From positions 32,001-96,000 of IMG/VR virus record IMGVR_UViG_3300009155_000048: a stretch of DNA of 64,000 bases; one strand, written 5' to 3'. This DNA is from a virus. The notes under the pieces were generated by a model. The model was given only the letters and a program-made list of their open reading frames with translations. It was not told the origin of the DNA and searched no databases. This document shows, piece after piece, positions 2,876 through 30,337 of the stretch. The first letter of the stretch is position 1; each line of letters starts with the position of its first letter. The position numbers were made by a program, and so were the translations under genes.

Positions 2876-3309
2876 ATAGATATAGAAGGATTGATTTTAT
2901 CAACTCTTTTTTCATGCCTACCACCCTCAAATTCCGTGTCTAAAAATACCTCTACTATTCCAATTGCTTCTTCAATTGAAATAAATCTAGCAGGTAAACA
3001 CAAAACATTAGCATTATTATGTTGTCTAGCTAGTGAAGCAATCTCACTATTCCAACAAAGAGCAGCTCTAATATCTCTCCATTTATTCGCAGTCATACAA
3101 ATACCATTTCCGGTACCACAGATTAGAATACCAATAACAGATTCTTCATCTAAAATTGAAGCAGTAACAGCATGTGCATAATCTGGATAATCTACACTTT
3201 CAGTAGATTCAGGTCCAAAATCAATTACAGGGACTCCTTGTTCGGAAATCCAATTAATTAAGGCTTCTTTCATTTCATAACCAGCATGGTCAGATCCAAT
3301 TGCAATCAT
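2872..3309 (-). CDS. rpiB: Ribose-5-phosphate isomerase B
   Basis: IGSDHAG, DYPDYA, GILICGTGNG, ARQHNNANVL, FEGGRHEKRV. Confidence 0.95.
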   Translation of the reverse strand: MIAIGSDHAGYEMKEALINWISEQGVPVIDFGPESTESVDYPDYAHAVTASILDEESVIGILICGTGNGICMTANKWRDIRAALCWNSEIASLARQHNNANVLCLPARFISIEEAIGIVEVFLDTEFEGGRHEKRVDKINPSISI

Positions 3310-4004
3310 AATAATTCATCTAATTTTCTATCTCTATTAATTTGGACATATTTAGCATTATATTCATTCACATAGTGAAGATTAATAAAGTTATTTTTAT
3401 TTAAAACAATTTGATAATTTAATTGTGATATAAATTTCGGCCCACTCAACGAAGTGGTGTTAATATTTGAAGCCACCGGTTCATCAATTTCATAATTATA
3501 ATTAAATGAGTCTTCTTTACCACAAATGATTGTCTTATCATCCCATCGCTTGAAAGCATCTATATAAACAGATATACCTCCAATTTCACCTAATTTATAA
3601 AAAGTATTACTATTACTTACCTTATTTATAGATTCATTGTGGAATAAAACAGATTCTTGAGCAAACATTCCAATTTGAGATGAACAAATGATAAAATCAA
3701 AGTTATTTTCTTTTAGATAATGATAGAGTACACCCATACCATCCGATTCGGATAAATTCATAACATCTAAGAATTCCTCTGATGTAGATTTCATTTCCTT
3801 AAATATTTCTTTATGAAATGATTGAGACAATTCTTGTATCAATAAAGAATTATATTTCGCATCAATATCTAATTTTAGATTAAATGCGTTTTGAAGTGAT
3901 ACCATTTCATCTCTAGTGATAGACATAGATACTTGTATTTTCTGTGATACCGGGAGTCTTTTATCCAACACTCCTAATTTTAATAATTCTGAATTAATTT
4001 GCAT
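3306..4004 (-). CDS. Degenerate paralog of the C-terminal part of the major capsid protein with RDRKLDELL tail
   Basis: SLLIQELSQSFHKEI vs capsid SILVNELSQTISKQI; YKLGEIGGISVYIDAFKRWDDKTIICGK vs YPVGQIGDIQIYVDPYMKYNDNRIVIGR. Confidence 0.7.
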   Translation of the reverse strand: MQINSELLKLGVLDKRLPVSQKIQVSMSITRDEMVSLQNAFNLKLDIDAKYNSLLIQELSQSFHKEIFKEMKSTSEEFLDVMNLSESDGMGVLYHYLKENNFDFIICSSQIGMFAQESVLFHNESINKVSNSNTFYKLGEIGGISVYIDAFKRWDDKTIICGKEDSFNYNYEIDEPVASNINTTSLSGPKFISQLNYQIVLNKNNFINLHYVNEYNAKYVQINRDRKLDELL

Positions 4005-4200
4005 CTATTAAAGTAAATCTTTTTTCACCATCTTCTGATTCAGAATTCCAAATCTCATATGGTCTAACATACACCGAACCAAAGTTCAGTGACTTATACA
4101 CAACCAATCTTTCTTGTGTTTCTGTGTGTACTGCCATTGATATAATCTCATAGGTACCACCTTTGTAATGTTTATAAACTTGCCCCGGTAGTGGATACAT
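3994..4200 (-). CDS. DUF1653-family small protein
   Basis: YKHYKGGTYEI...HTETQERLVVYKSL...YVRP. Confidence 0.85.
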   Translation of the reverse strand: MYPLPGQVYKHYKGGTYEIISMAVHTETQERLVVYKSLNFGSVYVRPYEIWNSESEDGEKRFTLIDAN

Positions 4201-5152
4201 CTTTATTAGTTAATTTTTTACCAGTAGTTGGATCGTAATTTAGAATTAACATCTCAACACCTTTTGCTTGTTCTTTCTTTGTATCAGCGTTATTACCACC
4301 TTGTGCTGAACTTCTAAATACTTCTTTTTCAGTCCAAACATATTGGTCTCTTGGTAACAACTCTTCCAACAAAGGAAAATAATAATAAGAAAGCGACCAA
4401 CGACATTTAGTTGTTTTCAACAATTCCAACAATCTTCTATGAGAAGCTGGTCCAAATACACCTTCTTTATCAGCACCATACCAAAATAATCTCTTAGCAT
4501 CATCTTCACCTTTAGATTCATCAAATCGAGCATATGGTGGGTCTAAATACAAATAAGTATCTTCCGAGTCATACTTAGTAATCAATTCTTCAAAGTCAAT
4601 ATTATAAAACTCGGTGATTGATTGTAATTTTTGAGTATAAGTATTCTTCTTTAATTTAGAAATAAGAACTTCTAACTTCAAACGGTCTTTATCTTTTTTA
4701 TAACCGGAGAAACCACCACCTCTTGGGTACACGCTCGAAAAACTTGATGTAATTAAGAAGGCATAAATAGCAGCTTTTTCAAAATCACCAATTTCAAAAT
4801 TCATATTATCAAGAAATTCATTTTTTGTATATTCTTGATATACTTTTTTGTAAAAATCCCATTTTTTGATTGGATCAATTTCGTTTGTGTGTAACAAAGT
4901 ATTTTTAAGGTCCTCTAAATAAGGTAAAAATTTACCAGGTTCCGAACAACATTTATAAAGATTAACTTGATGACGATTTTTATCATTATAAATAACTGTA
5001 TCAAATTTCAAAGATTCATCATCCATATATGTGGCCATTGATCCAGAGAATGGTTCAATATATGTTTTTATTTCACTTTTTGGAATTTTTGAATTTATAA
5101 ATTCCTTAAATGCTGAGGAGCTTTTTCCTCCAAAATACCCATATAATGCCAT
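4172..5152 (-). CDS. Dam/D12-class DNA adenine methyltransferase
   Basis: YFGGKS, YIEPFSGS, YND, YLDPPY motifs. Confidence 0.9.
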   Translation of the reverse strand: MALYGYFGGKSSSAFKEFINSKIPKSEIKTYIEPFSGSMATYMDDESLKFDTVIYNDKNRHQVNLYKCCSEPGKFLPYLEDLKNTLLHTNEIDPIKKWDFYKKVYQEYTKNEFLDNMNFEIGDFEKAAIYAFLITSSFSSVYPRGGGFSGYKKDKDRLKLEVLISKLKKNTYTQKLQSITEFYNIDFEELITKYDSEDTYLYLDPPYARFDESKGEDDAKRLFWYGADKEGVFGPASHRRLLELLKTTKCRWSLSYYYFPLLEELLPRDQYVWTEKEVFRSSAQGGNNADTKKEQAKGVEMLILNYDPTTGKKLTNKDVSTTGASL

Positions 5153-5188
5153 GTTAATTTTATTTTATTTTTTATTTATATCAGAATC

Positions 5189-6100
5189 CTATAAGAAGTT
5201 TTTATATTCTTCTTTAATAAAATTTTTATATCTAGTCATCAATTTTATACAATCATCATCTATTTTGTTACCTCTTGATATATTAGTAATTTTTTCAAGT
5301 GGTCTTAAATTATCTAAAGAATTAGCAATATGAAATGGAGTATCATCTTTGAATAAGGAGACATGAACTATATGGTCAATTTGCCATTTTTTTCCATAAT
5401 TTTCCCAACTAAGATCATCATAAAATTTACTCTCTAAATTTGATTTTAGTTCATCAGGAGTGTATTTTAGTAAATTATACGTTTTGTCTATTTTAAATAA
5501 AGTTTTTCTATTCAAATAGTTTTTTAATACTTGTCTCCAAGCATGAATATGTATATTCTTTTTATAATTATTTTTATCTTTTTGTCTTCTATCCTCAATC
5601 CTTTTAGAATTTCTGATTTTCCTATCGATATCTCTACAAGATTTACAAATGTGCATATATCTTCCATTTTTAATCAAATAGTCCGACAATTCTCTGTTAA
5701 TATTACATTTTATACAATTTATGTAACCTCTTTCTTCTATTTCTTTTGTTATCTTATCATATTTTTCTTTTGTTTTTAACTTATTTTCTTCACTTCTATT
5801 GAATTTTTCATCACCATAGACTTCTTTAAGTGTTAGTTTATTTTTAAATTGAGCACAAGATGAATTACAAGTGTAGATATTATATCTTTTAATATTTTTA
5901 TTATATTTTTGGTAAGCCAAAAACTTCTCACTTCCACAAATATCACACTTAACATTTATTTTTAAATTTGACTCAACTGGTAGTTGATTTACTGGTATTT
6001 CAATTTTATGATTACACTTTATATCCTGATATCCTAAAGATTTATAATATTCTATATTTAGGTGTGATATTGTTGTTTTAATGTATTCATCCAGAATCAT
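5189..6100 (-). CDS. HNH homing endonuclease with zinc-ribbon N-terminus
   Basis: CDIC, CIKC, CKSC; WENYG..WQIDHI...NLRPL...N..RGNK. Confidence 0.8.
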   Translation of the reverse strand: MILDEYIKTTISHLNIEYYKSLGYQDIKCNHKIEIPVNQLPVESNLKINVKCDICGSEKFLAYQKYNKNIKRYNIYTCNSSCAQFKNKLTLKEVYGDEKFNRSEENKLKTKEKYDKITKEIEERGYINCIKCNINRELSDYLIKNGRYMHICKSCRDIDRKIRNSKRIEDRRQKDKNNYKKNIHIHAWRQVLKNYLNRKTLFKIDKTYNLLKYTPDELKSNLESKFYDDLSWENYGKKWQIDHIVHVSLFKDDTPFHIANSLDNLRPLEKITNISRGNKIDDDCIKLMTRYKNFIKEEYKNFL

Positions 6101-6152
6101 AACTTTATTTACATTTTTTATATAACTTATATATAAAAAATATCACTTCCTT

Positions 6153-6992: not shown

Positions 6993-6995
6993 TAT

Positions 6996-7054: not shown

Positions 7055-7062
7055 AATGTATT

Positions 7063-7092: not shown

Positions 7093-7098
7093 GATTTG

Positions 7099-7451: not shown

Positions 7452-7467
7452 GTGTTAATTACTTTTA

Positions 7468-7519: not shown

Positions 7520-8035
7520 TTAAAATGGAACATCATCTTTCTTAAATGAACCACTCTTTTTACTATCATAGTAAAAATCAACAGTTAATAATGGATGACC
7601 TTCTTTAGTTTCCCATAAATCCATTTCGGATTCATATTGAATAAGTGTATCAGTTGTTAACTTCTTCAAAAAACCCATAATTTTCATTAATTTATTAAAT
7701 CTCTCAGTTTTGTTCAAAACAAACTGAATACTTAAATCATAACCATCAGTAGTAACATAATAGTTTTCAATATTAGCTAACTTAATCATTTGTCTAATTA
7801 AAGATGCTAAATGTTCTAAAACATCATCGGATGTTGGATCATTGTCTCTACGATCGTAGTCTTCTTCATCTTCGTCATCATAATCATCATCATAGGGGTC
7901 ATCATACATAGATTCTTCATCTTCACCACCATAGTATTCACTATCACCAAAATCAGAGCTATCTGATGTATTATCAAATTCATCCTCTTCTCCGCGTTCT
8001 TCATTTAGAAGTTCTTTATAGTTTTTTAGTTTCAT
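7520..8035 (-). CDS. Acidic protein with targeting-like N-terminus and SSB-like C-terminal DDVPF
   Basis: MKLKNYKELLNEE, D/E tract, terminal DDVPF. Confidence 0.7.
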   Translation of the reverse strand: MKLKNYKELLNEERGEEDEFDNTSDSSDFGDSEYYGGEDEESMYDDPYDDDYDDEDEEDYDRRDNDPTSDDVLEHLASLIRQMIKLANIENYYVTTDGYDLSIQFVLNKTERFNKLMKIMGFLKKLTTDTLIQYESEMDLWETKEGHPLLTVDFYYDSKKSGSFKKDDVPF

Positions 8036-10243: not shown

Positions 10244-11554
10244 ATGTCTAAACTAATGAAACTTAACGAAATTCAAGACGAGTCTGTATTAAATGATATC
10301 TTTAATAATGAGATAATAATATTTGAAGATATACAAGGTAGTAAAATATATGTAAACTGGAATGGTTCCAATTTTACAATTAAATCAAAATCATTATCAT
10401 CGGATCCTATCAATATGATTGATTTAGCTATGCAAAATTATTATAATAATGCTATTAGTTTTTTTAATAATCTTGATAACAGAGTTAAAGGATTGATTAA
10501 TAAAAAATGGTGGTTTTGTTTTGAATTTTTCCCAGATAATCAACCAGCAAATATTGAATACAATAGAGTTCCTAAAAATAATTTAGTCTTAACTTCTATC
10601 TACAAAGGTAACAAATTTGATTATACCATTGATGAATTAGAAGAATATGCTAGATTACTTGATGTTGATGTAATTCCGGTAATTTTCAAAGGCAAACTAA
10701 ATGAAAAAGTTATAGAAGCAATTAAATATTTCTTAAACACAAGTGAGTCAGACTTAGAATATGTATTTGGCGAGAAGTCATTTTCTTACTTCTTCTATAA
10801 AATATTAAGTCCACAAACTCAAAATTCATTTTTGATGAATGAAGACTTTCAAAAAAATGTTGAGAAGTTAATAATAAGAATTGATGGTAAAGATGTATCA
10901 TTTGAAATTTTGAATCCATTATATAAAAGAATATCGGACACAAACTCAACAGACTTTGTTGAAATTTACACACTTATATTAGTTAATTTCTTGAATTTCT
11001 GTCAATCAATAGACTTTAATCAAATTAAAGTAAAGGGAAATAAAAGAGATGAAGTTTATATCTATTTAATTTGTAAGTTATTCAATATGTACTTATCGGA
11101 AGTAAAAGATGATATTGCTAATTTTCAATTTACTGTACCCGAATTCTTTGATAAAGATAAATTTAGAATTAACACAGAGTTGATTCCAAATAAAATGACT
11201 AAACAATTCATTTCAGAGGATAAAAAGTTTGAATATATTTTCAAAGTAATTTTAGGTAGTTTCAATAAGAAGAGAAAGAAACCAATTGGCGTATTCACAG
11301 AAGGAACAATTAACATATTTAACAATTTTGTACAAATGATACAAGAAAAAATTGATGAATTCTTTAACAAAAAAAGTGAGATTGAATTAACCAGAAGTGG
11401 ACTAATTGACTTCTCACAATGGTTTGATGTTAAATATGATGTGGATGCGGAAGAAAATGTTTATCCAGATGTATATACCGAATTAGAAAAAGGTAAGGAA
11501 AAAGATAAAAAAGGAACAAAGGGTGGAAAGTTTGGAGAATATGAAAAGAAATAA
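10244..11554 (+). CDS. RNA-ligase-fold (Rnl2-like) protein, apparently lacking the catalytic Lys
   Basis: IFEDIQGS in place of ExKxxG; CFEF, VIPVIFKG, VEKLIIR in expected order. Confidence 0.5.
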   Translation: MSKLMKLNEIQDESVLNDIFNNEIIIFEDIQGSKIYVNWNGSNFTIKSKSLSSDPINMIDLAMQNYYNNAISFFNNLDNRVKGLINKKWWFCFEFFPDNQPANIEYNRVPKNNLVLTSIYKGNKFDYTIDELEEYARLLDVDVIPVIFKGKLNEKVIEAIKYFLNTSESDLEYVFGEKSFSYFFYKILSPQTQNSFLMNEDFQKNVEKLIIRIDGKDVSFEILNPLYKRISDTNSTDFVEIYTLILVNFLNFCQSIDFNQIKVKGNKRDEVYIYLICKLFNMYLSEVKDDIANFQFTVPEFFDKDKFRINTELIPNKMTKQFISEDKKFEYIFKVILGSFNKKRKKPIGVFTEGTINIFNNFVQMIQEKIDEFFNKKSEIELTRSGLIDFSQWFDVKYDVDAEENVYPDVYTELEKGKEKDKKGTKGGKFGEYEKK

Positions 11555-11714
11555 TATAGGTGGAGTATTTAAGGTTAATGCAACGGTAACAAAAACTATG
11601 ATTGAAGACTTAGAGAAACAACACGGGATTGATTTAGTCCAAAGATTGGAGAGTTTACTTGTTTTATTAACAGTTAGAAGACACCGAATTGAAAAAATAT
11701 TATCTAAAATTTAA
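11541..11714 (+). CDS. 57-aa capsid-fragment paralog with RRHRIEKIL tail
   Basis: VNATVTKTMIEDLEKQHGIDLVQRLESLLV vs capsid VSSALRRTEIEDIKANTGMDIVQKMESILV; ATG 11541 preferred over GTG 11523. Confidence 0.7.
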   Translation: MKRNNIGGVFKVNATVTKTMIEDLEKQHGIDLVQRLESLLVLLTVRRHRIEKILSKI

Positions 11715-11845
11715 TGCCATCTGCTCTTATATCAAAACCAAATAATTGGAGTATTTTATTGAAATATAAGAGAAGAGAAAAGTTGACTAAAATCTTAAAT
11801 AAAATATTAAAAACAATTTCGGTAAATTACATTATAATTGTATGA
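11714..11845 (+). CDS. 43-aa peptide with RREKLTKIL motif, absent from ORF track
   Basis: TAATG overlap upstream, ATGA overlap downstream. Confidence 0.5.
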   Translation: MPSALISKPNNWSILLKYKRREKLTKILNKILKTISVNYIIIV

Positions 11846-14717: not shown

Positions 14718-15278
14718 ATGATTGATTTATCCAAAGGACTAAGTTTATTTATATCAAATGATAACCAAATTGAACTATGTTTATCCAGTCTGACTAACTT
14801 TTTATCAGAAGAATACACAGTTTTAACTTTCTCTTTTGGCAAAGATAAATTTGGATTATCACCAACAGAAGATAACTTTAAAGAACAAGTTAAAAAGAAT
14901 CTCTTTAGAGTTGAAATGCTAGTAGTTCACCTTAACTATAAATTAAAGAATTATACTGACTTTTTCAATTTTTTAACAAGTTTAAATCTTATAGTCTTTA
15001 TAGTGACACCACGATCTAAATCAGATATTTTGTTAGATAACTCCGGTAGTTACATTAGAAACTTCTATGAGGTTAAAGATAATCCAGATTATTTAACATC
15101 AAGTCTTAAAAGGTTTTCAAATCTAACAATTACAAATATTGATTTGGATTCTTTACCCGATAAATATTTAATCAAAAATATTAATACTGATGAAGAGTTC
15201 ACAGTAAGTCAATATAAGAAATCTTATATTAGAGATAAGAAAATTGACATTTTTTTAGATGATAATGACCAGGATTAA
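14718..15278 (+). CDS. Hypothetical protein, possibly degenerate RecA/DnaB fold, with RDKKIDIFL tail
   Basis: ATG 14718; GLSLFIS...TVLTFSF...EMLVVH pattern without Walker A. Confidence 0.5.
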   Translation: MIDLSKGLSLFISNDNQIELCLSSLTNFLSEEYTVLTFSFGKDKFGLSPTEDNFKEQVKKNLFRVEMLVVHLNYKLKNYTDFFNFLTSLNLIVFIVTPRSKSDILLDNSGSYIRNFYEVKDNPDYLTSSLKRFSNLTITNIDLDSLPDKYLIKNINTDEEFTVSQYKKSYIRDKKIDIFLDDNDQD

Positions 15279-17806: not shown

Positions 17807-18601
17807 ATGCCAGAGATTTCGGAAGTTAGAATAATGTCTGATTTTATTAATCAGAATTCCAAGAACAAATTTAATAAAGCCTTTCACGTTGAAAAAGGAA
17901 ATATTCCTACACAATTCCTTGATAAAGAATTTGATATAAAATCTGATTCTAGAGGAAAAGAACTATTACTATTCATTGATGATTTACCTATTCATGTCTT
18001 TATGGGAATGAGTGGCAATTGGAAATATACTCCAACTGAAAAATGGAATGAAACTAAATTCACTAGGCTTAGACTAGATGACGAAACCGGACACTCACTA
18101 TTATTATATGGTGGGTTTATGGGACCAAAATACTCGGTTGGTAAACCATTCACCGGAACCAAAAGAGGACCAGATCCAACTAAAGAGTTTGATGATTTCA
18201 AATCAAATATCTATAAGAATATAGACAATAAAGCTTTTGATAAACCTATCTGCGAAACTTTACTTAATCAAGAGTATTTTAATGGAATTGGCAACTATAT
18301 CAGAAGCACCTTAATATTCTATGCTGATGTGAATCCATTTGAAAAAGCAAGAACTATATTACAAAATTCTGATAGAGTACTTAATTTATGTAAGGATGTT
18401 CCTCTTAAATCTTATGAATTGAACGGTGGGCAACTCAAAGATTGGAAATCACCATTTGATACCGACTCTACTGAATTTAAGAAATGGGTATTTTATCAAA
18501 AGGGATTGGCTTGTACCGATAAAACCGGTAGAACATTCTGGTTTGATGAGAAATGGAAGGACTATTGTCCATATGAAATTAAGAAAAAACGTGGAAAATA
18601 A
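17807..18601 (+). CDS. Fpg/Nei DNA glycosylase, NEIL1-like
   Basis: N-terminal MPE, GMSG, GPD, LLNQEYFNGIGNY (H2TH), GRTFWF; start moved to the MPE ATG. Confidence 0.9.
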   Translation: MPEISEVRIMSDFINQNSKNKFNKAFHVEKGNIPTQFLDKEFDIKSDSRGKELLLFIDDLPIHVFMGMSGNWKYTPTEKWNETKFTRLRLDDETGHSLLLYGGFMGPKYSVGKPFTGTKRGPDPTKEFDDFKSNIYKNIDNKAFDKPICETLLNQEYFNGIGNYIRSTLIFYADVNPFEKARTILQNSDRVLNLCKDVPLKSYELNGGQLKDWKSPFDTDSTEFKKWVFYQKGLACTDKTGRTFWFDEKWKDYCPYEIKKKRGK

Positions 18602-19061
18602 CTTTATTTATAGTGATAGAGGTGAGGGTAAAACTGAATTTATAACAAGATTAGCCAATGATTTATATAGAAAAGGTGGTTATAAAATAGATTTTTATTC
18701 ACTAACATCAGAGAGTTTACCGAATTTAGAAAGAGGAATTTCATATGATATTTACCCAAATAATATTGTAAATAGAAATTACATTTTAGACCTCAAAAAA
18801 GAAAAGATAAAAGCAGGTAAACTAGATATTCTTTTCATAGATGATATAGATTACTTAGATAATTGGGATGATATATTATCACTAAATTGTGATAAATTTA
18901 TCACTGTTGATATATTGGAAGAAAGAAATTACCCAAAAAGAAGCTGTAATATGGTAAAATTAAAAGGAAACTATAATCTTTTTCACTTACCTGATATAGA
19001 ATATAATAGCTTCTTAAAACCTTATTTAAGAGAGAAAAAATTAGACATATTATTAAAATGA
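18573..19061 (+). CDS. Short RecA/DnaB-like P-loop protein with REKKLDILL tail
   Basis: RGEGKT, FYSL, ILFIDD; ATG 18573 preferred. Confidence 0.55.
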   Translation: MKLRKNVENNFIYSDRGEGKTEFITRLANDLYRKGGYKIDFYSLTSESLPNLERGISYDIYPNNIVNRNYILDLKKEKIKAGKLDILFIDDIDYLDNWDDILSLNCDKFITVDILEERNYPKRSCNMVKLKGNYNLFHLPDIEYNSFLKPYLREKKLDILLK

Positions 19062-20344: not shown

Positions 20345-22096
20345 TTAGTTAAGTAATCCAGGAGTATCAGACACTTTAATTGTCATATACTGCTTTTGAG
20401 GATACCAACCCACTTCAGCAACTGCGTATCTAGATCTTAACAACATACGTGGAGCGAATGTAGCTTCAGAGATGATACTGATTGACTGAGCCATTAAGTA
20501 AGGTACGAAGATGATACCTGGTTGATCAGGATTGTTCTTTCTACCAATAACGATACGGTTATCGTTATACTTCATGTAAGGGTCAACATAGATTTGGATA
20601 TCACCGATTTGACCAACTGGATACAATTGACCAGAACCGTTGATTTTAGATTTAGTTGGATTAATAGTATATCCAGCGACATCCATTAAAGCTGCAGCTA
20701 AACCTCCGTTAGTTACTGCGAATTGTGCAGGACCAACACGACCTTCTGTTGCAATATAGTTAGAAGCGTGAACCATCTTAGTGATCAACTTACGTTGAAC
20801 AGCGTGTGTAGTTTCACCACCAACTTGAGTTTGAGTGTAAAGAGTATCTAAGTCAAAAATAGTTGGACTAGAGATGTTATTGCTATAAGTAGCACCAGAT
20901 GCTGGAGCTGAAGATCTGTTCAAGTCACCCATTTCAAAGATTTTAGATACAATTTGTTTAGAAATTGTTTGAGACAATTCGTTAACAAGGATAGATTCCA
21001 TTTTTTGAACGATATCCATACCAGTGTTAGCTTTGATGTCTTCAATTTCAGTTCTTCTAAGAGCTGAAGATACTTCAATAGTACCAACCGCGATAGACTT
21101 AGTAGAAACTTTTGGTCCAATTACACCAGCATAAGTCAAATCATCTTCAGCACGACTCATTGGGTATCTACCATTCTGAGAGTTTGTAGAGAAGTTTGTA
21201 GAGAAACCTGGTAATTGATCTTCTAATGCAGAAATCATAGTAACAGTTAAGTTAGAAGTACTTGAGAAAGTAAGACCAGGAATAGCTGTTAATTGAGACT
21301 GGATTGTAGCAGAAGGAGTAAATGTATTTTGAGTTTGGTCAAAAGCTGCTGCTGCTGGGTTATAAACGTTAGCAATTGTTTGTGAACCAATAGTAGCATT
21401 TGCTTGTCTAAATGCTCTGAAGATAGGAAGACCATCGATACGAGAGTAACCTAAGAATTCAAGAACGTTAGCTTTAGAACCACTAATAGATGTACCTGTT
21501 GAAACAGATGCAGCATAGTTACCTAAAGTAAAGTAAGCCTTAGTACCAGTAGCACTTTGGAAACCACCAACTGTTAAAACGATATCAGTTGAAGAAATTG
21601 CAGTTGAAACTTTAGTACCAAACGCACCACTTTGTAACATACCAGCTGTATCAGTTGAGTTAGTTGATACGATTTTAAATACTTGAGGTGCACCATATGT
21701 AGTATCAACATCATCATATTGGAAGTCAATATACAATAAGTCTAATTTTGGACCTGGTGAAGGTTTTACAGCAACTAAATCTAAACCGATTGTTTGAGCT
21801 GCGATTTTCATAGCAACTGGTAATAAGTTTTGACCTAAGTCACCAGAACCAGCCGAACCTGAGTTACTTGACCAGTTAGTACCAAGTGTAGTACCTGATA
21901 AAGTTGATGGTTGAGGAGATGTAACTGCACCCATACCTTGGATTGTTGCGTTTACATACGCATTTTCATTGATAGAGTGGAACTCTGCGTATTCTGACAT
22001 CCAATCAAGTCTGTCTTCACCAGCAACGCCCATGTTCTCTAATACTGGAGACCACTTCTTCAATGCTTTTTGTTTGTCTATTCTAATGTGTGACAT
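20345..22096 (-). CDS. Major capsid protein (T4 gp23-like)
   Basis: KKWSPVLE, DLVAVKP, IEDIKA.TGMD, IYVDPY, FVPY, TFAPRMLLRSRY; follows protease gene. Confidence 0.92.
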   Translation of the reverse strand: MSHIRIDKQKALKKWSPVLENMGVAGEDRLDWMSEYAEFHSINENAYVNATIQGMGAVTSPQPSTLSGTTLGTNWSSNSGSAGSGDLGQNLLPVAMKIAAQTIGLDLVAVKPSPGPKLDLLYIDFQYDDVDTTYGAPQVFKIVSTNSTDTAGMLQSGAFGTKVSTAISSTDIVLTVGGFQSATGTKAYFTLGNYAASVSTGTSISGSKANVLEFLGYSRIDGLPIFRAFRQANATIGSQTIANVYNPAAAAFDQTQNTFTPSATIQSQLTAIPGLTFSSTSNLTVTMISALEDQLPGFSTNFSTNSQNGRYPMSRAEDDLTYAGVIGPKVSTKSIAVGTIEVSSALRRTEIEDIKANTGMDIVQKMESILVNELSQTISKQIVSKIFEMGDLNRSSAPASGATYSNNISSPTIFDLDTLYTQTQVGGETTHAVQRKLITKMVHASNYIATEGRVGPAQFAVTNGGLAAALMDVAGYTINPTKSKINGSGQLYPVGQIGDIQIYVDPYMKYNDNRIVIGRKNNPDQPGIIFVPYLMAQSISIISEATFAPRMLLRSRYAVAEVGWYPQKQYMTIKVSDTPGLLN

Positions 22097-22181: not shown

Positions 22182-24293
22182 TTAAAGATTTTTGAATCTC
22201 TCCATAATTGCAGTTACATCACCATCAGACAATTTGTCTTCTTGAATTAACGCATTATGTTCAACTAATTTTTTAGTTACAGATTCATTTTTCTTGAATG
22301 GTCTTGTTAACCAGAAATGTTCAACTTTTGATTCAGTTGTTAAGTCTGGGTACAATCTAGCTTGCGATAAGATAGACTTTTTAGAAGATTCATTCAATTG
22401 TGACCAGATTGGCTTAATGTTTTCAGGCATCAATCTAATCAATCTCTCTTCAAGAGATTCATTTTTAACAGATAACGCTTCTCCAATCATCTTTAACACA
22501 TCAGAACTAGTGAAATAACTCTTTTCGTTTATGTAAAGTTTTACTTGTTCTTGCTCCTCGTTTGTTAAGCTGTAATAGCTATCAACTTGGGACTTGTTTA
22601 AGAATTTTAAGAAATGTAAATCATTGGACTCAGAAACTTTACGTTTTTTAGCTTCTTCAATTAATTTATCAATTTGTTGAGATAATTCTGTATCAGAATT
22701 GCCTTCGAATTTAGATTCTTCTCCATAAGGATTTTCCTCTTCTTTTTCATGTGCCATTGGCATTCCCGGCATTCCTTCTTCTTCACCATATGTACCTTCT
22801 TCTGAAGCTACTAAGTGAGGCATACCTTCTTCTTCCTCTTCTTCATATGCCATTGGCATTCCTTCTTCTTCTGAAGCAATCATTTCAAATCCTACTTCTT
22901 CTAAAGTTGGGAATGAATTACCTTTACTTTCATTTAATTTATTACCATTTAATTTCTCAGCAATTAAACCCGCGTAAGAAACAGTTTTATCTAAGTTTTC
23001 AGCAATATACTCAGAGTAAGCGATGTTATCATCTAAGTGTTCAGCAATGTATTCAGAGTAAGCGATGTTACCTTCTACATGCTCAGCTAAATATTCAGAA
23101 TAAGCAATAGAGTTATCTACATGCTCAGCGATATACTCAGAGTAAGCAATATTCTTATCTAAGTTTTCAGCGATGTACTCAGAGTAAGCAATATTCTTAT
23201 CTAAGTTTTCAGCGATGTACTCAGAGTAAGCAATATTCTTATCTAAGTTCTCAGCTAAATATTCAGAATAAGTGATATTCTTATCAACATTCTCAGCTAA
23301 ATATTCAGAGTAAGAAATATTTTTGTCTAAGTTTTCAGCTAAGTACTCAGAATAAGTGATGTTCTTATCTAAGTTTTCAGCTAAGTATTCAGTGTAATTA
23401 ACAGCCTTTTCTAAGTTTTCAGCTAAATAATCATTGTGAGAGATCAACTTATCAGTAGTTGATTTCAATGATTTATTTTCATTAACCACAACTTGAACTT
23501 TTTCAGCTAAGTAATCTAAATACTTAACCATTTGAGAGTTAGTCTTATTAAGTTCTTCATAGTACTCAAGAAGTTGCTCTAATTTTTTCGGATTGATGTT
23601 ACCTGATTTAATAGCAGATTGTGCAGCTTTCTTAGTAGTAGCGATTTCATTAATCAAATACTTAGAATAGTCAGCTAATTGCTGTTTGGTAACGAAGTCA
23701 TTCTGGTTCATATTGAATAGTTCGTTTATTTTTGACTCATCGGACATTTCATATATCCTAAAGTTAGTTTTATTGGAAAACCCATATGATTCATTTATGG
23801 ATTTCATTCTAGCTGAAGCAAATCCTGGGTCAGCAACAATGTCGTAAGTAAACAATTTCTTTAAAGTAACAGTACCATCTGATTCAGTGATACCAGCAGC
23901 TCTTGAAGAAACGAATACAGGACAACCATCATCAACTAAAGATTTAGCTTCTTTACCCCAATAGGTATTCAATAATTTAATCTCACCCTCAACACGATTA
24001 GATTCTTTAACATAAGAAGCTTTTCTAATAATGTGTGAAGCGCGAGATAATGATGTATCAAATACATCTGGGTGATCGAATTCACCATAAACAACACCCA
24101 TATTTTGAATACGGTCATTAAGTTCTTCTAAACAAGGAATAAACTTATCTGCAGTGTAGATTCTTTCATTACGGTTTTTAACACCGAACTCAGTAAAAAT
24201 ACCACCTAAGATATAGTCTTTCTTGCCACCAGAAACTTGAACGCTCTCCTTTAATGGGTTTGAGTTGTTTTCAACGATTAAGATTGGTTTCAT
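22182..24293 (-). CDS. Prohead protease (gp21-like) fused to repeat/scaffold region
   Basis: KNRNERIY, GEFDHP, SHII, VSSRAAG, TYDIVADPGF. Confidence 0.9.
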   Translation of the reverse strand: MKPILIVENNSNPLKESVQVSGGKKDYILGGIFTEFGVKNRNERIYTADKFIPCLEELNDRIQNMGVVYGEFDHPDVFDTSLSRASHIIRKASYVKESNRVEGEIKLLNTYWGKEAKSLVDDGCPVFVSSRAAGITESDGTVTLKKLFTYDIVADPGFASARMKSINESYGFSNKTNFRIYEMSDESKINELFNMNQNDFVTKQQLADYSKYLINEIATTKKAAQSAIKSGNINPKKLEQLLEYYEELNKTNSQMVKYLDYLAEKVQVVVNENKSLKSTTDKLISHNDYLAENLEKAVNYTEYLAENLDKNITYSEYLAENLDKNISYSEYLAENVDKNITYSEYLAENLDKNIAYSEYIAENLDKNIAYSEYIAENLDKNIAYSEYIAEHVDNSIAYSEYLAEHVEGNIAYSEYIAEHLDDNIAYSEYIAENLDKTVSYAGLIAEKLNGNKLNESKGNSFPTLEEVGFEMIASEEEGMPMAYEEEEEEGMPHLVASEEGTYGEEEGMPGMPMAHEKEEENPYGEESKFEGNSDTELSQQIDKLIEEAKKRKVSESNDLHFLKFLNKSQVDSYYSLTNEEQEQVKLYINEKSYFTSSDVLKMIGEALSVKNESLEERLIRLMPENIKPIWSQLNESSKKSILSQARLYPDLTTESKVEHFWLTRPFKKNESVTKKLVEHNALIQEDKLSDGDVTAIMERFKNL
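22950..23438 (-). repeat. About 12 x 42-bp in-frame repeats encoding YSEY[LI]AE[NH][LV]DKNI[AST]
   Basis: Counted in the translation; synonymous variation between units. Confidence 0.9.
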
Positions 24294-24413: not shown

Positions 24414-24863
24414 ATGAAAAGAGTAAAAGTTATAATTTTTCAAAAAAATGAAGATTCTTTGGATGAAATTGTTCAATTTTTATCTAAATCGGAAAACTCA
24501 AAAGAATTTTATTTAAAAATGAATAGAGATAAATTCATAAATGAAATTTTATCTATTTCCGATCCAATTCATCAATGGATGCCATTTTTAGAGTCACTAT
24601 CACCAATAAAACTATATGACAAATATGGATCCACTTATCAGTCAAAATATAGAGAAGTACTTAACATATCAACAATATCACACCATATTAAAAGTATAGT
24701 TGTAGAAAACAACACTCTATATGGAATTATTGATATACTAGACACACCAATAGGTGGACGAATTCAATCATTAGATGCAGAACAGATGGTACTAAATCCC
24801 ATATATAATACAGGTGAAATCATAACATTTGATATAGATTTTAATATAAGGGAAGCAGCATGA
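24414..24863 (+). CDS. Degenerate prohead-protease-like fragment with internal RDKFINEIL motif
   Basis: ISTISHHIKSI..ENNTLYGIIDILDTPIG vs protease LSRASHIIRKA..ESNRVEGEIKLLNTYWG. Confidence 0.6.
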   Translation: MKRVKVIIFQKNEDSLDEIVQFLSKSENSKEFYLKMNRDKFINEILSISDPIHQWMPFLESLSPIKLYDKYGSTYQSKYREVLNISTISHHIKSIVVENNTLYGIIDILDTPIGGRIQSLDAEQMVLNPIYNTGEIITFDIDFNIREAA

Positions 24864-25270
24864 TACTAACTAGAGAAATTATAGTAAAAATAAATGAGTC
24901 CAACTTTTCATATTATGAAGAGTTAGGATATGATGTTGCTATTGGAGAAGCTCTAATAATTCCAGTTGAATTATTATCAACAGGAAGCCACTATAAAATA
25001 GATTGTAAATGTGATGGATGTAGTATAGTTAAGGAAGTCATATTTAAGAATTATGTTAAATATGATAATAAATGGGGCGAGTACTATTGTAGAAAGTGTT
25101 CAGAGAAGAAAAGAAAAGAAACTCTTAAAGAAAATTATGGCGTTGAATATCCAATTCAAAACAAAGAAATAAAGAAAAGGATTAAGAAAACTATGATTGA
25201 TAAGTTTGGAGTAGATAACCCAACAAAATCAAAAGAAATTATTTCTAAAAGAAAAAAAGTCTCAAATTAA
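24860..25270 (+). CDS. Zinc-ribbon protein resembling homing-endonuclease DNA-binding modules, no nuclease domain
   Basis: N-terminus parallels 5189..6100; YGVEYP/FGVDNP repeats as in 54500..56188. Confidence 0.65.
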   Translation: MILTREIIVKINESNFSYYEELGYDVAIGEALIIPVELLSTGSHYKIDCKCDGCSIVKEVIFKNYVKYDNKWGEYYCRKCSEKKRKETLKENYGVEYPIQNKEIKKRIKKTMIDKFGVDNPTKSKEIISKRKKVSN

Positions 25271-25287: not shown

Positions 25288-26994
25288 TTAGAATTCAAAT
25301 TCAGCACCTTCACCACCAGCTTCTCCGCCACCACCTTCACCACCCGGTTCTGGACCAGCCTCCGGAGTTGTTTGAGCTCCTCCTTCAGGGGCAGCTTGAG
25401 CACCACCTTCGGCACCAGGTTCACCACCTTCAGCACCAGCTTCAGCACCACCTTCTGGGCCAGCACCACCGCCTTTACCAGATTTAATCCAATAGGCTTT
25501 ATTTTCTTCTTTTTCTTCTGGTGTCAATTTCATAACTTTATCAATTAAATAATCAATATGGAAATATGGTTGGCCATCAGCAGTTTGAATTCCCAACATA
25601 GTGCCTAAAATACTAGCTCTCTTTTCAAAATTTGCCAACTTTTTCCACTCTTCAAATAATTGATTTGAATTAAAATTGATATCTACTTGGTTTAAGAATA
25701 TCTCATCATTTTTCAATTCTGGAAATTCCATACACATTTGTAATTTAAGTGGTTTAACAATTAATTCTTTATAGTTAGCTCTTAAACGGTTAATAAAGTT
25801 ATTAAATTTAACTTCATCTCTAGTCATCTCAGCCGCATCACTAAATACATTACCACCACCATTTTCTTTATCAAATCTTTGGAAAGGAATTTTAGATGCT
25901 CTTTTTAAGATATTAAAGAACCAAGTTAACATATCATTCTCATTTAAGTTGTGACCTTCCGGTGAGACTAATTCCATACCAGGTGTACCAGCATCTCCTT
26001 CTGGGAACCACACTTGTTTATTATATGGTAAATGTTTTCTACCATTTATAGTAACAGTACCCAATGTATCATCCCATTCAACTTCTTCCGAGTAATCAGC
26101 AATTAATTGACCAATTTGTTCTTCAGCACGTTGTCTAGGTAAACCTTTAATTGGAATAGTAAACTTTTGATAAACAGTAGCGTTGATAATATTGAACATA
26201 ATTTTAGTTTGTTCAAGAATCTTTAACTGATTATATGGTTTAATTAAACCCTCAAGATATGAAGTTTCAGAATAATCATTCTGTGTTGAATATGAAATAA
26301 ATACCAATTGAGAATCTAAGAAGATTCTTCTTAATTGTGGATCCTCTGGATATTGAATCCAAAGATTACCAATAGATGGCTCATATGCTGGAACTAATGT
26401 TTCGGGTCTTAGTCTATTAAAGTGAATAATATTTTTTTTCTTATCATCCCAAACAATTTCAATTGCAATATAACCATCAATTAAGAAGTCTTTCATCATA
26501 TTCCAAGCAGTGATATTATCACCAAATCCAAATCTATTATAAATAATTTCAAAATACTCTTGATACTTATCCTTAATATCTTGTGAGTAGTCATTTGATA
26601 AAGGTCTAGGTGAACAAAAATCATTCTCATTATAGATAATTGCCTCATCGGAAACCGATGAAACAAAATCTCTTAATTCATCCTTAATTGAATATTCTCT
26701 TAAAATTCTTCTCTTATCAGCATAACTTCTATCTAAATACGGAACCGACTTTCTATTAAGAACAGACGCAACCGCTTTGGATGAAAAGAAATCATACATC
26801 GAATTATTTTTCTGACTGTACGGATCCTCATTAATACCAACACCGACAGTGTTTCTGATAATCATATCATCATACTTCATACCGAAGTTTGATAAATTAC
26901 GAAGCAATCTATTAAAAAGACCCTTATTCTCAACCGCAGATGAGATATAAGTAGAATTTTGATTTTGTTGATTTAGCGGATTATAAGAAGCCAT
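25288..26994 (-). CDS. Portal protein (gp20-like)
   Basis: IDG, YLE..IKPYNQLKILE, G.LPRQRAE, ASKIP..R, TRDEVKF..FINRLR. Confidence 0.9.
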   Translation of the reverse strand: MASYNPLNQQNQNSTYISSAVENKGLFNRLLRNLSNFGMKYDDMIIRNTVGVGINEDPYSQKNNSMYDFFSSKAVASVLNRKSVPYLDRSYADKRRILREYSIKDELRDFVSSVSDEAIIYNENDFCSPRPLSNDYSQDIKDKYQEYFEIIYNRFGFGDNITAWNMMKDFLIDGYIAIEIVWDDKKKNIIHFNRLRPETLVPAYEPSIGNLWIQYPEDPQLRRIFLDSQLVFISYSTQNDYSETSYLEGLIKPYNQLKILEQTKIMFNIINATVYQKFTIPIKGLPRQRAEEQIGQLIADYSEEVEWDDTLGTVTINGRKHLPYNKQVWFPEGDAGTPGMELVSPEGHNLNENDMLTWFFNILKRASKIPFQRFDKENGGGNVFSDAAEMTRDEVKFNNFINRLRANYKELIVKPLKLQMCMEFPELKNDEIFLNQVDINFNSNQLFEEWKKLANFEKRASILGTMLGIQTADGQPYFHIDYLIDKVMKLTPEEKEENKAYWIKSGKGGGAGPEGGAEAGAEGGEPGAEGGAQAAPEGGAQTTPEAGPEPGGEGGGGEAGGEGAEFEF

Positions 26995-27051
26995 AAAATT
27001 TTAAAAATTTCTAGTATATATTAAAAACAGAGTTTCCCATATATATTAAGT

Positions 27052-27744
27052 TTAACGACCATATTTTTCAAGGCTTTTCTTGATTCTATCAGCATGTCCT
27101 TTTAATAGTTTGTAGTTTTCTTTTATATCATCTGAAATTTGATAAAAGTCTTTTATCAAAACTTTACTCATTTCAGCATCTCTATCAGCTCTATCGCCTA
27201 ACTTAGCACTCCAAATCTCATAGAGTTTTCTAGGGTCATATTTATTTTTAGGGTGACCAGAATATAAGAATCTAGGAACTGCTTCCATATTTATCTTATG
27301 GACTAGTTGAACTTGTTGAAGATTATATTCAACCAAAGCATACTCAAATCCATAATTCATCAATTCTCTATAAACTCCTTGAAAATCAACTTCTAATAAA
27401 TTATTGTTTTCAAAGTCTTCTTCTTTGATGTACTTATCAAATATACTCACCCGAACTTCAAGTGGGATAAAATTAAAATTAATACCTATTATAATTATAA
27501 GATTCTCAAATTTCTTAAAATCAACAGTGAAAATTGGAGAATATCTCATCCAATTAGAATCATCCATATAATGTAAGTGATAAAACCCACTCAATTGCAT
27601 CTGACCAACATTCATACTAGTAACTTCACTATCTGATTTACTAAACTTATTATAGAAATAAAGTGAGTTATTTTTATAATTCTCAGCAATTCCATTACCA
27701 TAAACCAAATTATTTAATTTAACTCTTTCTAATAATTCACCCAT
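27052..27744 (-). CDS. Possible DNA end-protector (gp2-like)
   Basis: FYHLHY...SPIF...IGINFNFIP..VR; adjacent to gp4-like gene. Confidence 0.5.
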   Translation of the reverse strand: MGELLERVKLNNLVYGNGIAENYKNNSLYFYNKFSKSDSEVTSMNVGQMQLSGFYHLHYMDDSNWMRYSPIFTVDFKKFENLIIIIGINFNFIPLEVRVSIFDKYIKEEDFENNNLLEVDFQGVYRELMNYGFEYALVEYNLQQVQLVHKINMEAVPRFLYSGHPKNKYDPRKLYEIWSAKLGDRADRDAEMSKVLIKDFYQISDDIKENYKLLKGHADRIKKSLEKYGR

Positions 27745-27788
27745 AGGATATTAATTTATAGATATATATTAAAAAATAACATTAAGGT

Positions 27789-28298
27789 ATGTTAAATAGT
27801 GCTCCAAAACAACCAGGTAAATATCACCAAGGATTGTTTACTCCAAGTAACAAAGACAAAGTAATTAAATTAAACTCACAAGGTGGATTATACTATCGTT
27901 CCGGATTAGAACAGAAAATGATGGTCTATCTAGACAATAATGAAAAGATTATCAATTGGGGATCAGAACATCTTAGAATACCCTACACTAAAACAGAATG
28001 GGTATCAGAAAATCAAGATTATAAAACATCAGAACATACTTACTATCCTGACTTTTATTATGAGTTAAAAAGAGAGGATGGATCAATTTCTAAAGTTGTT
28101 GCTGAAGTAAAGCCTTATTCAGAAACAATTGAACCTAAATTGAATCCAAATCCAACAGCTAAACAGATGAAGAACTTTGAATATGCTCTTAAAATGTATA
28201 ATAAAAATCTAAGTAAGTGGACTTACATGATTGAATATTGTCAAAGAAAAGGATTTGAATTTATTATTATTACTGAAAAAGTCCTTGGATCAAGATAA
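27789..28298 (+). CDS. Head completion nuclease (gp4-like)
   Basis: YRSGLE, WGSE...IPY, YYPDF, EVKP, IITE. Confidence 0.88.
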   Translation: MLNSAPKQPGKYHQGLFTPSNKDKVIKLNSQGGLYYRSGLEQKMMVYLDNNEKIINWGSEHLRIPYTKTEWVSENQDYKTSEHTYYPDFYYELKREDGSISKVVAEVKPYSETIEPKLNPNPTAKQMKNFEYALKMYNKNLSKWTYMIEYCQRKGFEFIIITEKVLGSR

Positions 28299-28632
28299 TA
28301 ATAAGAAAGAAAACACTCATAATAGTGTTTATACCATCATATAAATTTATAGCAATATTTCTCTTGGTTGATAAGATAACATACTTAAATAGACCAAGAA
28401 AAATAATACCAAAGAAATATATCCACAAATGTGAGAATAAACCAATCGGTAACCAAATTAAATAGAATATCTTAAATAGATAGAAAAATAAATTTGGGAT
28501 AGCACTTTTAATATCCAAATTTGGATCAAATTTAGCAAAAATTTTATTACGATTGGTTAGTTGATATACCTCAACCACAATAAAAACAAGTGAAAGAGCA
28601 TAGAAAAAATTAGACAAAAGGTTCATCTTCAA
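28270..28632 (-). CDS. Small membrane protein
   Basis: Three to four hydrophobic segments. Confidence 0.65.
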   Translation of the reverse strand: MKMNLLSNFFYALSLVFIVVEVYQLTNRNKIFAKFDPNLDIKSAIPNLFFYLFKIFYLIWLPIGLFSHLWIYFFGIIFLGLFKYVILSTKRNIAINLYDGINTIMSVFFLIIILIQGLFQ

Positions 28633-28924
28633 AAATAGTTTTTATTTCTCCTAGATTTTTTAAATTTGTGAGAGAATTTTGCATTAGTCTTATACTACCA
28701 GATTTACTTACTTCATTAAAAATCTCATCAGATACAGACACTTCAATCGGATCACCCACAATTCTGTCGTATTCATGAGGAATAGCATCTGAATCTCTAC
28801 TTTCATAAGTCTTTCTTATGTAAGATTTATATTCATCCTTTGTTAAATGTAGTGAACAACCATCAGGACGAATTCCCCATCCACGTTCAGACTCTTCCCA
28901 ATACTGTAAATAAACGCTTTTCAT
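28610..28924 (-). CDS. Hypothetical protein
   Basis: WEESERGWGIRPDGCSLH; 104-aa ORF. Confidence 0.7.
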   Translation of the reverse strand: MKSVYLQYWEESERGWGIRPDGCSLHLTKDEYKSYIRKTYESRDSDAIPHEYDRIVGDPIEVSVSDEIFNEVSKSGSIRLMQNSLTNLKNLGEIKTIFEDEPFV

Positions 28925-29001
28925 ACTTTTGTGATATTTATAGTGATATTAATTAAACTCTTAAAGTTTAGCAAATATAATAAATAAAAATTAATTATAC
29001 A

Positions 29002-30153
29002 ATGAGAAAAATAACATTTCATTTAGAGTATATTTGGTTAGACGGTAATTATCCTCAACAAATACGTTCAAAAACAAAAATAGTGGAGAAAGAAATCACC
29101 GACGATATTATTGAAGATATTCAAAATAGTGAAACCGGAGATGTACGCGAACCATTCTATAATGATTGGAAAAAAAATCCAAAATCATTACCAATGTGGA
29201 ACTTTGATGGATCTTCCACTGGCCAAGCCGAAACTTCTAAATCAGAATTGTTATTACATCCAGTAAATATTTTCATGGATCCAGTTAAACACAATGGATT
29301 TATAGTTATTTCTGAAGTATATAATACCGACATGACACCACATCATACTAATAAAAGAGCCAAAATGGTTGAAATGGTTGAAAAGTATGACCAAGAAACA
29401 ATGTGGGGATGGGAGGCTGAGTATTTCATTTATGATAAAAAAACTAATAAACCACTTGGATGGCCAACAGAAGGATATCCTAGACCACAAGGACCATTCT
29501 ATTGTGCAGTTGGTGGTAATAATGTTGATGGACGCGAATTTGTCGAAGAACACACAACATTATGTGAAATTACAGGTTTGAAAATTTCTGGAATCAATGC
29601 TGAAGTTGCTCTTGGTCAATGGGAATATCAAATTGGACCAGTTTATGCAATAGATGGTGCTGACCAAATGTGGATTTCTAGATTTTTATTACAAAGATTG
29701 TCTGAAAAATATGGATATTTTATTGAATTAGAACCTAAACCATATAAAGGAAATGATTGGAATGGATCGGGAATGCACGTTAACTTCTCAACTAAAGAAA
29801 TGAGAGATGATTTGAAAAACAAGAAAAAGTTAGTTATTGAAGCTTGTGAAAAATTAGGACAAAAAGTAGAAGAACATATTGCAGTATATGGACCAAACAA
29901 TGAAGCTCGTTTAACTGGATCAAATGAAACTTGTTCAATTAAAGAATTTAGATATGGAATTGGAGATAGAACAGCTTCAATTCGTATTCCTTCTTCAATT
30001 GAAGACAAAACAACTCCTGGATACTTAGAAGATAGAAGACCAGCTTCAAATGGTGATCCATATGAAATTGTAACTAGAATGGTCAAAACCATCTGTGGTG
30101 GAAAGTTAGATAAAAAATCTGATAAGAAAAAGAAGAAAGAACAAGAAGCATAA
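29002..30153 (+). CDS. glnA: Glutamine synthetase type II
   Basis: EYIWLDG, WNFDGSSTGQA, PQGPFYC, INAEV..GQWEYQIGP, DWNGSG.H, RLTG, YLEDRRPASN. Confidence 0.95.
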   Translation: MRKITFHLEYIWLDGNYPQQIRSKTKIVEKEITDDIIEDIQNSETGDVREPFYNDWKKNPKSLPMWNFDGSSTGQAETSKSELLLHPVNIFMDPVKHNGFIVISEVYNTDMTPHHTNKRAKMVEMVEKYDQETMWGWEAEYFIYDKKTNKPLGWPTEGYPRPQGPFYCAVGGNNVDGREFVEEHTTLCEITGLKISGINAEVALGQWEYQIGPVYAIDGADQMWISRFLLQRLSEKYGYFIELEPKPYKGNDWNGSGMHVNFSTKEMRDDLKNKKKLVIEACEKLGQKVEEHIAVYGPNNEARLTGSNETCSIKEFRYGIGDRTASIRIPSSIEDKTTPGYLEDRRPASNGDPYEIVTRMVKTICGGKLDKKSDKKKKKEQEA

Positions 30154-30157
30154 AAAG

Positions 30158-30187
30158 AAAAACCTCTCAAATTTGAGAGGTTTTTTT
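30158..30187. terminator. Bidirectional terminator
   Basis: AAAAACCTCTCAAA-TTTGAGAGGTTTTT. Confidence 0.75.
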
Positions 30188-30337
30188 AATTTTATTAAAT
30201 ATTTTATTTATTTTTCTAATTCTAACTTCTTGTTTTGTTTCATATTGAATACTAACTTTAGCATCAACAAAAGAAGGTTGTGATACAACATCTTGTATAA
30301 AGTCAGACCAATTATATTGTGCGAAGTTCTTGGACAT
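30167..30337 (-). CDS. 56-aa protein with RIRKINKIF motif, absent from ORF track
   Basis: TAATG overlap with sigma stop; MSKNFAQYNWSDFIQDVVSQPS...VRIRKINKIFNKIKKTSQI. Confidence 0.55.
   Translation of the reverse strand: MSKNFAQYNWSDFIQDVVSQPSFVDAKVSIQYETKQEVRIRKINKIFNKIKKTSQI

Follow-up and report, generated by a model that had tools for sequence, protein, structure and literature searches.

Why do otherwise unrelated proteins of one phage end in the same short amphipathic peptide? The question is raised by a viral DNA stretch of 64,000 nucleotides (the window; positions 32,001-96,000 of the 107,134-bp IMG/VR virus record IMGVR_UViG_3300009155_000048), in which a first-pass annotation had noted seven open reading frames (ORFs) with a common motif, R-x-x-K-[IL]-x-x-[IL]-[LF], and had proposed a decoy or interference system. 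The 107-kb record itself (G000) was analyzed together with three related records taken whole, the syntenic G001 (174 kb), G003 (465 kb, 98% complete), and G007 (151 kb). The motif proved to be a real, conserved, and clade-wide portable C-terminal peptide module (the tail) on unrelated proteins, and we put at about even the chance that it is a docking helix read by one common partner. The tail was enriched over chance, placed strictly at the C terminus, kept within families, and attached to unrelated bodies whose identities were assigned.

Enrichment, placement, and conservation of the tail

In the ORF-based gene set of G000 (110 proteins, 33,744 amino acids [aa], whole record), the strict pattern occurred 6 times against 0.32 expected, and the claim that the motif exceeds composition-based chance thus held. 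Five occurrences lay in the last 20 residues, where 0.03 were expected, and 6 of 6 within the last 24. A narrower core, R-[DE]-x-K-[IL]-D-x-[LF]-L, which was chosen post hoc, was found 4 times in G000 (0.001 expected), and a loose version in the last 24 residues was present in only 9 of 596 six-frame ORFs (≥30 aa). With Q also allowed at +3 and a position in the last 16 residues required (extended pattern), found and expected numbers were 6 and 0.06 in G000, 7 and 0.10 in G001, 35 and 0.32 in G003, and 10 and 0.17 in G007. Elsewhere in the proteins, the extended pattern occurred 8 times against 10.1 expected in G003 and exceeded expectation two- to three-fold in the smaller records.

The consensus of the tail was h-R-[DENQ]-x-[KQ]-[IL]-x-x-[IL]-L-(K)-end, with [IVL] at -1, R at 0, D, E, N, or Q at +1, K (or Q) at +3, I or L at +4, N, E, D, or K at +5, L or I at +7, and L, I, or F at +8, followed by K or the stop. 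Tails of the G000 group are rich in D at +5; those of the G003 group are rich in N and E at this position and have Q at +3. The motif ended 0 to 2 residues from the stop in 34 of 51 carriers, which formed 43 BLAST clusters. Four strong members in G000, namely, p232, p186, p162, and p157, shared Y-[LI]-R-[DE]-x-K-[IL]-D-x-[LF]-L at or next to the stop, and four small ORFs (p57, p56, p51, and p68) carried more basic variants (Table 1).

All seven peptides of the first-pass annotation were present where it had placed them, but only four of them fitted its own pattern (RDRKLDELL, RREKLTKIL, REKKLDILL, and RIRKINKIF); the other three departed from it at position 4 (RRHRIEKIL, with R, and RDKFINEIL, with F) or position 8 (RDKKIDIFL, with F). 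Five of the seven ORFs, p232, p57, p186, p162, and p56, were retained as members. The 43-aa ORF downstream of p57 was a doubtful case, with a motif that is not terminal and no homologue or family match, and p149 was excluded. A G003 homologue of p149 ends in ..TFDIDFNIS, without the tail, and the p149 gene lies upstream of a homing-endonuclease-like gene (24860-25270). Likeness of p149 to the prohead protease, which had been seen by eye, was not supported: hhalign against the phage's own protease gave a probability of 0.3%, no blastp match was obtained, and the match to phrog_207 reached only E 0.003 over 38 residues.

The counts already refute an explanation by chance or by residue composition in an AT-rich genome, or by a signal in the DNA that happens to be translated, and its probability is negligible. 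The commonest residues are indeed K, I, L, N, D, and E, but the roughly 100-fold enrichment was confined to C termini, with counts elsewhere at or within about three-fold of expectation, the codons varied, and the tail was kept across diverged homologues. For instance, one tail is encoded by CGT GAT GTA AAA ATA GAC ACT CTT CTA and another by AGA GAT AGA AAA TTA GAT GAA TTA TTA; since codons differ between copies, the motif is not a DNA repeat. An origin at the DNA level, including a Shine-Dalgarno sequence, was rejected on the grounds of codon variation and the position of R about 27-30 nt before the stop. A helix for membrane targeting was considered improbable in view of the conserved acidic positions, and derivation from the C terminus of the capsid protein was dropped, as that C terminus is not conserved between G000 and G001.

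In the p232, p157, p186, and p162 families, the tails have persisted although their bodies have diverged to 28-53% identity. Together with the differing codons, this bears out the earlier argument for selection at the protein level and speaks for purifying selection on the tail. In the p232 family, the pattern ..NRD[RK]K[IL]DE[LI]L was invariant in 15 full-length homologues, down to 51% identity. About 17 members of the p186 family keep SYIRDKKIDIFL, followed by an acidic extension that varies, and the p162 tail was kept in 12 cluster representatives down to 28% identity, being still recognizable at 28-35% identity as ..RDKKIEKLI.. or ..RNKKINDILL. The p157 orthologues in three genomes end in RDVKIDTLLK, RQSKIERILK, and RNEKLNQLI, so that the letters drift and the pattern is kept. 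Both p68 and p57 are intact in a related record, G002; there, 15 aa changes in the p68 body were accompanied by one tail difference, just ahead of the core, and the tail of p57 is almost unchanged.

The scan of related huge phages extended the pattern to G001, G003, G007, and the published 642-kb genome LR756502.1, in which 14 of 114 ORFs within positions 1-50,000 carry the tail. Loose-pattern carriers numbered 5 to 7 in G001, 27 in G003, and 11 in G007. The extended pattern was carried by 35 of 559 G003 proteins, and a matrix built from 51 tails gave scores of >7 to about 20 further G003 C termini, which brings the total to about 50, roughly 9% of proteins. Around the ends of the G003 record, the original pattern was present in 18 of 109 genes, and several more ORFs end in variants with Q at +3. 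These include a cluster of some 15-20 small genes, coding for 57-118 aa, at G003:430672-437638; nearly all of them are tail-ended, several start with MK[VL]VCI, one (432222-432578) has two copies of the domain plus tail, and weak matches to Pfam DUF6501 (E 0.001-0.005) were obtained in the cluster. The distribution of carriers is patchy and accessory: p186, p162, p57, p51, and p68 are absent at the syntenic G001 sites, p232 is absent from G003, and p56 is absent beside gp55 in G003. When a tail-only profile was run against a large protein database, no families beyond these were recovered, since the 40-residue minimum query length pulled family-specific flanks into the search. No published description of the tail was found in a literature search.

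Bodies of the carriers

Eight credible carriers were present in G000: three capsid pieces, one tail-tube/Hcp fold, two RecA/DnaB-type proteins, and two tiny proteins without a recognizable body. The modular body-plus-tag picture of the first-pass annotation was confirmed in that one conserved C-terminal peptide is joined to unrelated folds, several of which are cut-down relatives of virion or replisome proteins. When all bodies were compared by BLAST with the four proteomes, larger parents were found only for the capsid-like bodies, and their parent is the gp23-like major capsid protein of the phage.

Likeness to the capsid protein, proposed for two bodies and more weakly for a third, was confirmed for p232 and p57; the third capsid-like body is p68, outside the window. 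The p232 family (A1) aligned with the capsid family (A9) over 174 columns in hhalign (97.2%, E 4.5e-11), and p232 itself matched the phage's own capsid protein in blastp (E 3e-9) and phrog_28442 (E 1e-5). Its 232 residues are equivalent to capsid residues ~338-559, with a deletion, and thus represent only the C-terminal ~40%; the N-terminal arm and the first ~337 capsid residues are absent, and the complete HK97 fold with them. A search of PDB sequences with the p232-family profile found nothing relevant. The p232 gene stands in the string Dam, small ORF, p232, rpiB. In p57, residues 8-41 correspond to capsid residues 338-371 (41% identity over 34 aa, pairwise blastp E 1e-8), with a weak match to Pfam Gp23 (E 0.011).

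The p157 protein was assigned to the tail-tube/Hcp fold at the fold level only, without a sequence-level match to tube or Hcp proteins. Its AF2 model (pLDDT 82) has a beta body followed by a long terminal helix, with the tail inside residues 130-156. In VIA, the model matched Hcp1 8z7k (Z 9.4, root mean square deviation 3.4 over 110 residues) and the tube of phage Pa193 (Z 8.6); most of the top 50 matches were to tube or Hcp entries. Tube proteins in complex with DSR2 were among the Foldseek matches. No usable ESM Atlas match was obtained. The neighbors of p157 are a Dps-like gene, a fiber-like gene, and a methyltransferase, and not a tube-sheath module.

Two bodies had been described as degenerate DnaB/RecA folds, an assignment that stood at the fold level for both, but p162 is not degenerate, because its Walker A (GEGKT) and Walker B (DILFIDD) motifs are both intact. 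The AF2 model of p162 (pLDDT 83) places the tail in a terminal helix (residues 144-161) and matched a RuvB-like helicase, RAD51 paralogues, KaiC, and DnaB in VIA with Z 10-11; weak AAA matches were obtained in PHROGs and Pfam. In a metagenomic protein of 281 aa (P0069), the C-terminal 125 residues plus tail of a p162 relative are joined to an unrelated N-terminal part, which could reflect either a naturally occurring fusion or a chimeric assembly. The structural neighbors of p186 in the ESM Atlas were RecA_N, RadA, KaiC, and DnaB_C (TM 0.59-0.62, fold level only), and no Walker A motif was seen in its sequence. Searches of 50,697 phage records by tblastn with p162, p186, and a small G003 carrier gave nothing or one weak match.

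The p56 gene overlaps the gene of the gp55-like late sigma factor at TAATG, by which the two are translationally coupled, and a hairpin with a T-run (terminator) lies after p56; p56 had no family match in PHROGs or Pfam. Beyond the weak p162 AAA and p57 Gp23 matches, PHROGs and Pfam searches on the carriers gave nothing informative.

Table 1. Tail carriers, excluded or doubtful ORFs, and T4-type genes of G000. Plain coordinates refer to the window; those with the prefix L001 or L002 (here and in the text) refer to parts of the record upstream of it.
Feature	Position	Strand	Remarks
p232	3306-4004	-	Cut-down paralogue of major capsid protein; tail ..YVQINRDRKLDELL-end; tail codons 3309-3335
p57	11541-11714	+	57-aa ORF; basic tail variant RRHRIEKILSKI-end
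p68	L001:1202-1408	-	68-aa ORF, outside window; capsid 513-561, 35% identity, E 3e-12
p157	L001:739-1212	-	157 aa, outside window; tail-tube/Hcp fold
p186	14718-15278	+	RecA/KaiC/DnaB-like domain; tail ..SYIRDKKIDIFLDDNDQD-end; tail codons 15231-15257
p162	18573-19061	+	Minimal RecA/DnaB-type P-loop NTPase; tail ..PYLREKKLDILLK-end; tail codons 19029-19055
p56	30167-30337	-	56-aa ORF; basic tail variant RIRKINKIFNKIKKTSQI-end; sequence read directly
p51	L001:6789-6944	-	51-aa ORF, outside window
43-aa ORF	11714-11845	+	Doubtful gene, weak member; RREKLTKIL 15 residues from end
p149	24414-24863	+	Not a member; RDKFINEIL internal (residues 38-46 of 149) and off-pattern
Major capsid protein	20345-22096	-	gp23-like, 583 aa; phrog_28442 E 1e-51; phrog_138 (major head protein) E 1e-25
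Prohead protease	22182-24293	-	Long C-terminal extension
Portal	25288-26994	-	
Late sigma factor	30337-30663	-	gp55-like
Clamp loader	35419-36396	+	gp44-like
Large terminase	41430-43577	-	

Genomic setting and other terminal peptides

The phage is an uncultured megaphage related to T4. With a CheckV completeness estimate of 19%, G000 (GC ~30%) is a fragment of a genome of about half a megabase. It carries T4-type modules, and upstream of the window are ribonucleotide reductase, a DnaB-type helicase, and the N-terminal half of a family-B DNA polymerase. DNA-level matches to published huge phages (LR745206 and LR756502) were restricted to the capsid-protease region, with 74-78% identity.

Homing-endonuclease-like genes lie between protease and portal (24860-25270, +) and near the clamp loader (33100-34008, -), and the 276-aa gene at 32273-33103 corresponds to a single 657-aa gene in G003. 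A ResIII/DinG-like helicase N-part with a Hint/intein domain is located upstream of the window (L002:8861-9697, -, and L002:6752-8023, -); the two helicase parts are one 558-aa gene in G003. The DNA polymerase is split in two genes (L002:10416-11906, -, and G003:365414-366451), which are about 130 kb apart in the complete relative, and its C-terminal half ends in the T4-like KRLSVV[LM]DIFGGF. The gp55-like late sigma factor is short (~108-112 aa) and ends in ..GMGLHSI in G000 and G003, without a T4-type clamp-binding tail. The sequence TATAAATA was considered as a late-promoter marker and dropped, as its 16 and 22 occurrences per strand were close to a rough composition-based estimate of about 24 per strand.

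Other terminal peptides were also observed. Core genes of the replication region (7520-8035, -; L002:12001-12525, -; L001:15893-16849, -; L001:16869-18200, -) carry terminal peptides conserved in G001 and G003, namely, the SSB-Ct-like ..KDDVPF and ..[FY][FY]DIDF (..KDDVPF-end and ..FFDIDF-end in G000), ..NKLN[HN]IDFL, and, in DnaB, ..ENDVFLDSI. Several docking tails may therefore coexist in the phage. Many proteins start with MK[YH][LI]K.FE.. (34057-35372, 36828-38098, 40554-40925, and others), and with this N-terminal tag the phage would have another tag system, distinct from the tail.

Function of the tail and likeness to known systems

T4-related megaphages append the tail, an amphipathic helix of about 12-20 residues, to dozens of otherwise unrelated, mostly small accessory proteins. 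According to the reading to which we give an even chance, it would be a short linear motif for docking, with a free end that is important, one common partner, either phage encoded or a host protein, would recognize it, and each body would be tethered to the same hub, by analogy with T4 polymerase, gp33, and gp55, which sit on the clamp via a shared tail. The AF2 models of p157 and p162 both put the tail in the terminal helix. Several points weigh against the docking reading. No binding partner was found for the tail, and the gene calls of the relatives came from a simple ORF picker. Alternatively, the tail might be a helix for self-association, or a fold element inherited within one large family of small proteins and spread by recombination. 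Part of the count reflects common descent and not independent grafting, because the tail of the G003 'MKVVCID..' family sits in a paralogous array. The basic variants p51, p57, p56, and p68 depart more from the consensus and may represent something else.

Self-association, in which the tails pair or bundle and the carriers form homo- or hetero-oligomers with no separate hub, is unlikely. The tail is helical in both AF2 models, its charge pattern (R at 0, acidic or amide residues at +1 and +5, K or Q at +3) could form interhelix salt bridges, and many carriers are tiny proteins in one tandem array; however, the conserved core of about 9-12 residues is short for a stable coiled coil, and placement 0 to 2 residues from the end is typical of end-recognized docking peptides and is not needed for a bundle. 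We consider it rather unlikely that the tail is the counterpart, in this clade, of the T4 clamp-binding motif or of a PIP box and tethers accessory proteins to a phage or host clamp. In T4, a sliding-clamp-binding motif (SCBM) is common to gp43, gp33, and gp55 (PMC2988020, PMC7892883), and the near-identical, interchangeable tails of polymerase, gp33, and gp55, which are hydrophobic and acidic, dock on gp45 (PMC2988020). Read directly, the T4 tails are ..ASLDFLFG in gp43 and ..SLDFLYEAND in gp55. The tail shares with the SCBM the extreme C-terminal position behind a linker (the 34 of 51 carriers mentioned above) and matches the Q-x-x-h-x-x-a-a arrangement in being hydrophobic at +4, +7, and +8. 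There is a resemblance between K[IL]Dx[LF]L of the G000 tails and SLDFL[FY] of T4, and the end of p186, KIDIFLDDNDQD, looks similar to that of gp55. Moreover, a gp44-like clamp loader and a gp55-like sigma factor are encoded, and p56 lies in the gp55 operon. On the other side, the phage's own DNA polymerase does not carry this peptide: its tail is different and very conserved (most of the 120 listed relatives end in KRLSVV[LM]DIFGGF), scored -9.6 with the 51-tail matrix, and ranked 159 of 532 among C termini outside the training set, while T4 gp43 and gp55 tails scored -12 and -14. Only 11 of 51 tails have D at +5, 5 of 51 Q at +1, and 5 of 51 F at +8; the hydrophobic spacing fits the PIP box Q-x-x-[ILM]-x-x-[FY]-[FY], but +7 and +8 are mostly I or L, and the tail does not conform to it. 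A gp45-type clamp was not detected with Pfam PF02916 and PF09116 in G000, G001, G003, and G007, although divergent clamps can be missed, the tail is on no canonical replisome enzyme, and a 240-aa ORF upstream of the clamp loader was not recognizably a clamp and had no G003 match. The analogy with T4 clamp docking made in the first-pass annotation is therefore apt for placement, but the clamp reading is weakened, because the tail is unlike the polymerase tail of the clade and the T4 tails and no clamp was detected.

A role in capsid loading, in which the tail binds the scaffold or capsid interior and the carriers are packaged and injected like T4 internal proteins, is disfavored and decidedly unlikely. 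The phage has T4-type head genes, some of the bodies resemble capsid or tube proteins, and many G003 tails have [LIV]-x-E, a site of the T4 prohead-protease type, just before R. The capsid targeting sequence of T4 (internal proteins IPI-III and Alt), however, is an N-terminal peptide that the prohead protease cuts off at L/I-x-E, a description that the tail does not fit. The four strongest G000 tails have no L-x-E before R, carriers are found among DNA-metabolism and other nonstructural genes, the C terminus of the protease, an enzyme with a long C-terminal extension, bears no likeness to the tail, and the separate N-terminal MKYLKxFE-type tag on late proteins would suit the role better. That a host or phage AAA+ protease reads the tail as a degron or adaptor signal, timing the lifetime of carriers or delivering targets, is very improbable. 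A terminal, basic-plus-hydrophobic peptide on small accessory proteins might be expected from general knowledge of ClpX signals, for which C-motif-2 of MuA (RRKKAI) and the XB tail of SspB serve for comparison, but the acidic +1 and +5 positions are not features of known ClpX C-motifs.

The decoy or interference function proposed at the outset is hypothetical. In its elaborated form, as a counterdefense toolkit or a set of tethered baits that poison the assembly of competing phages, we rate it as rather improbable. The capsid protein and tail tube are known targets of bacterial immune sensors. The baits would be cut-down, assembly-incompetent copies of capsid and tail-tube proteins along with RecA-like ATPase domains, and the shared tail would tether them to a hub that neutralizes, hides, or destroys what they have captured. 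Returning to the docking reading, one conserved terminal peptide is present on about 5-9% of the proteins across a whole clade of the largest phages known, which would imply a central partner organizing a large share of the uncharacterized accessory proteome. Identification of this partner would open a functional approach to dozens of orphan genes at the same time and would also explain why truncated own capsid and tube-like proteins are kept; the tail itself could be used as a ready-made affinity handle for pull-downs.

Among known systems, gp24, the vertex protein of T4, is a paralogue of the capsid protein gp23, and p232 likewise represents a diverged further copy of the capsid protein that this phage itself encodes; unlike gp24, p232 is partial and bears the tail, and p57 and p68 are far too short for a capsid fold. 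The T4 capsid targeting sequence resembles the tail as a portable address peptide on unrelated accessory proteins of a T4-type phage, whereas the tail is C-terminal and its carriers lie outside head-gene neighborhoods. SSB-Ct (DDDIPF) and the SspB XB tail are terminal recognition peptides that recruit diverse proteins to one hub, but their sequences are unrelated to the tail. Like the T4 SCBM, the tail is a short, hydrophobic-plus-charged peptide at the extreme C terminus of unrelated proteins in a T4-related phage; it differs in sequence, none of its carriers is a known clamp client, and dozens of proteins carry it here, compared to three in T4.

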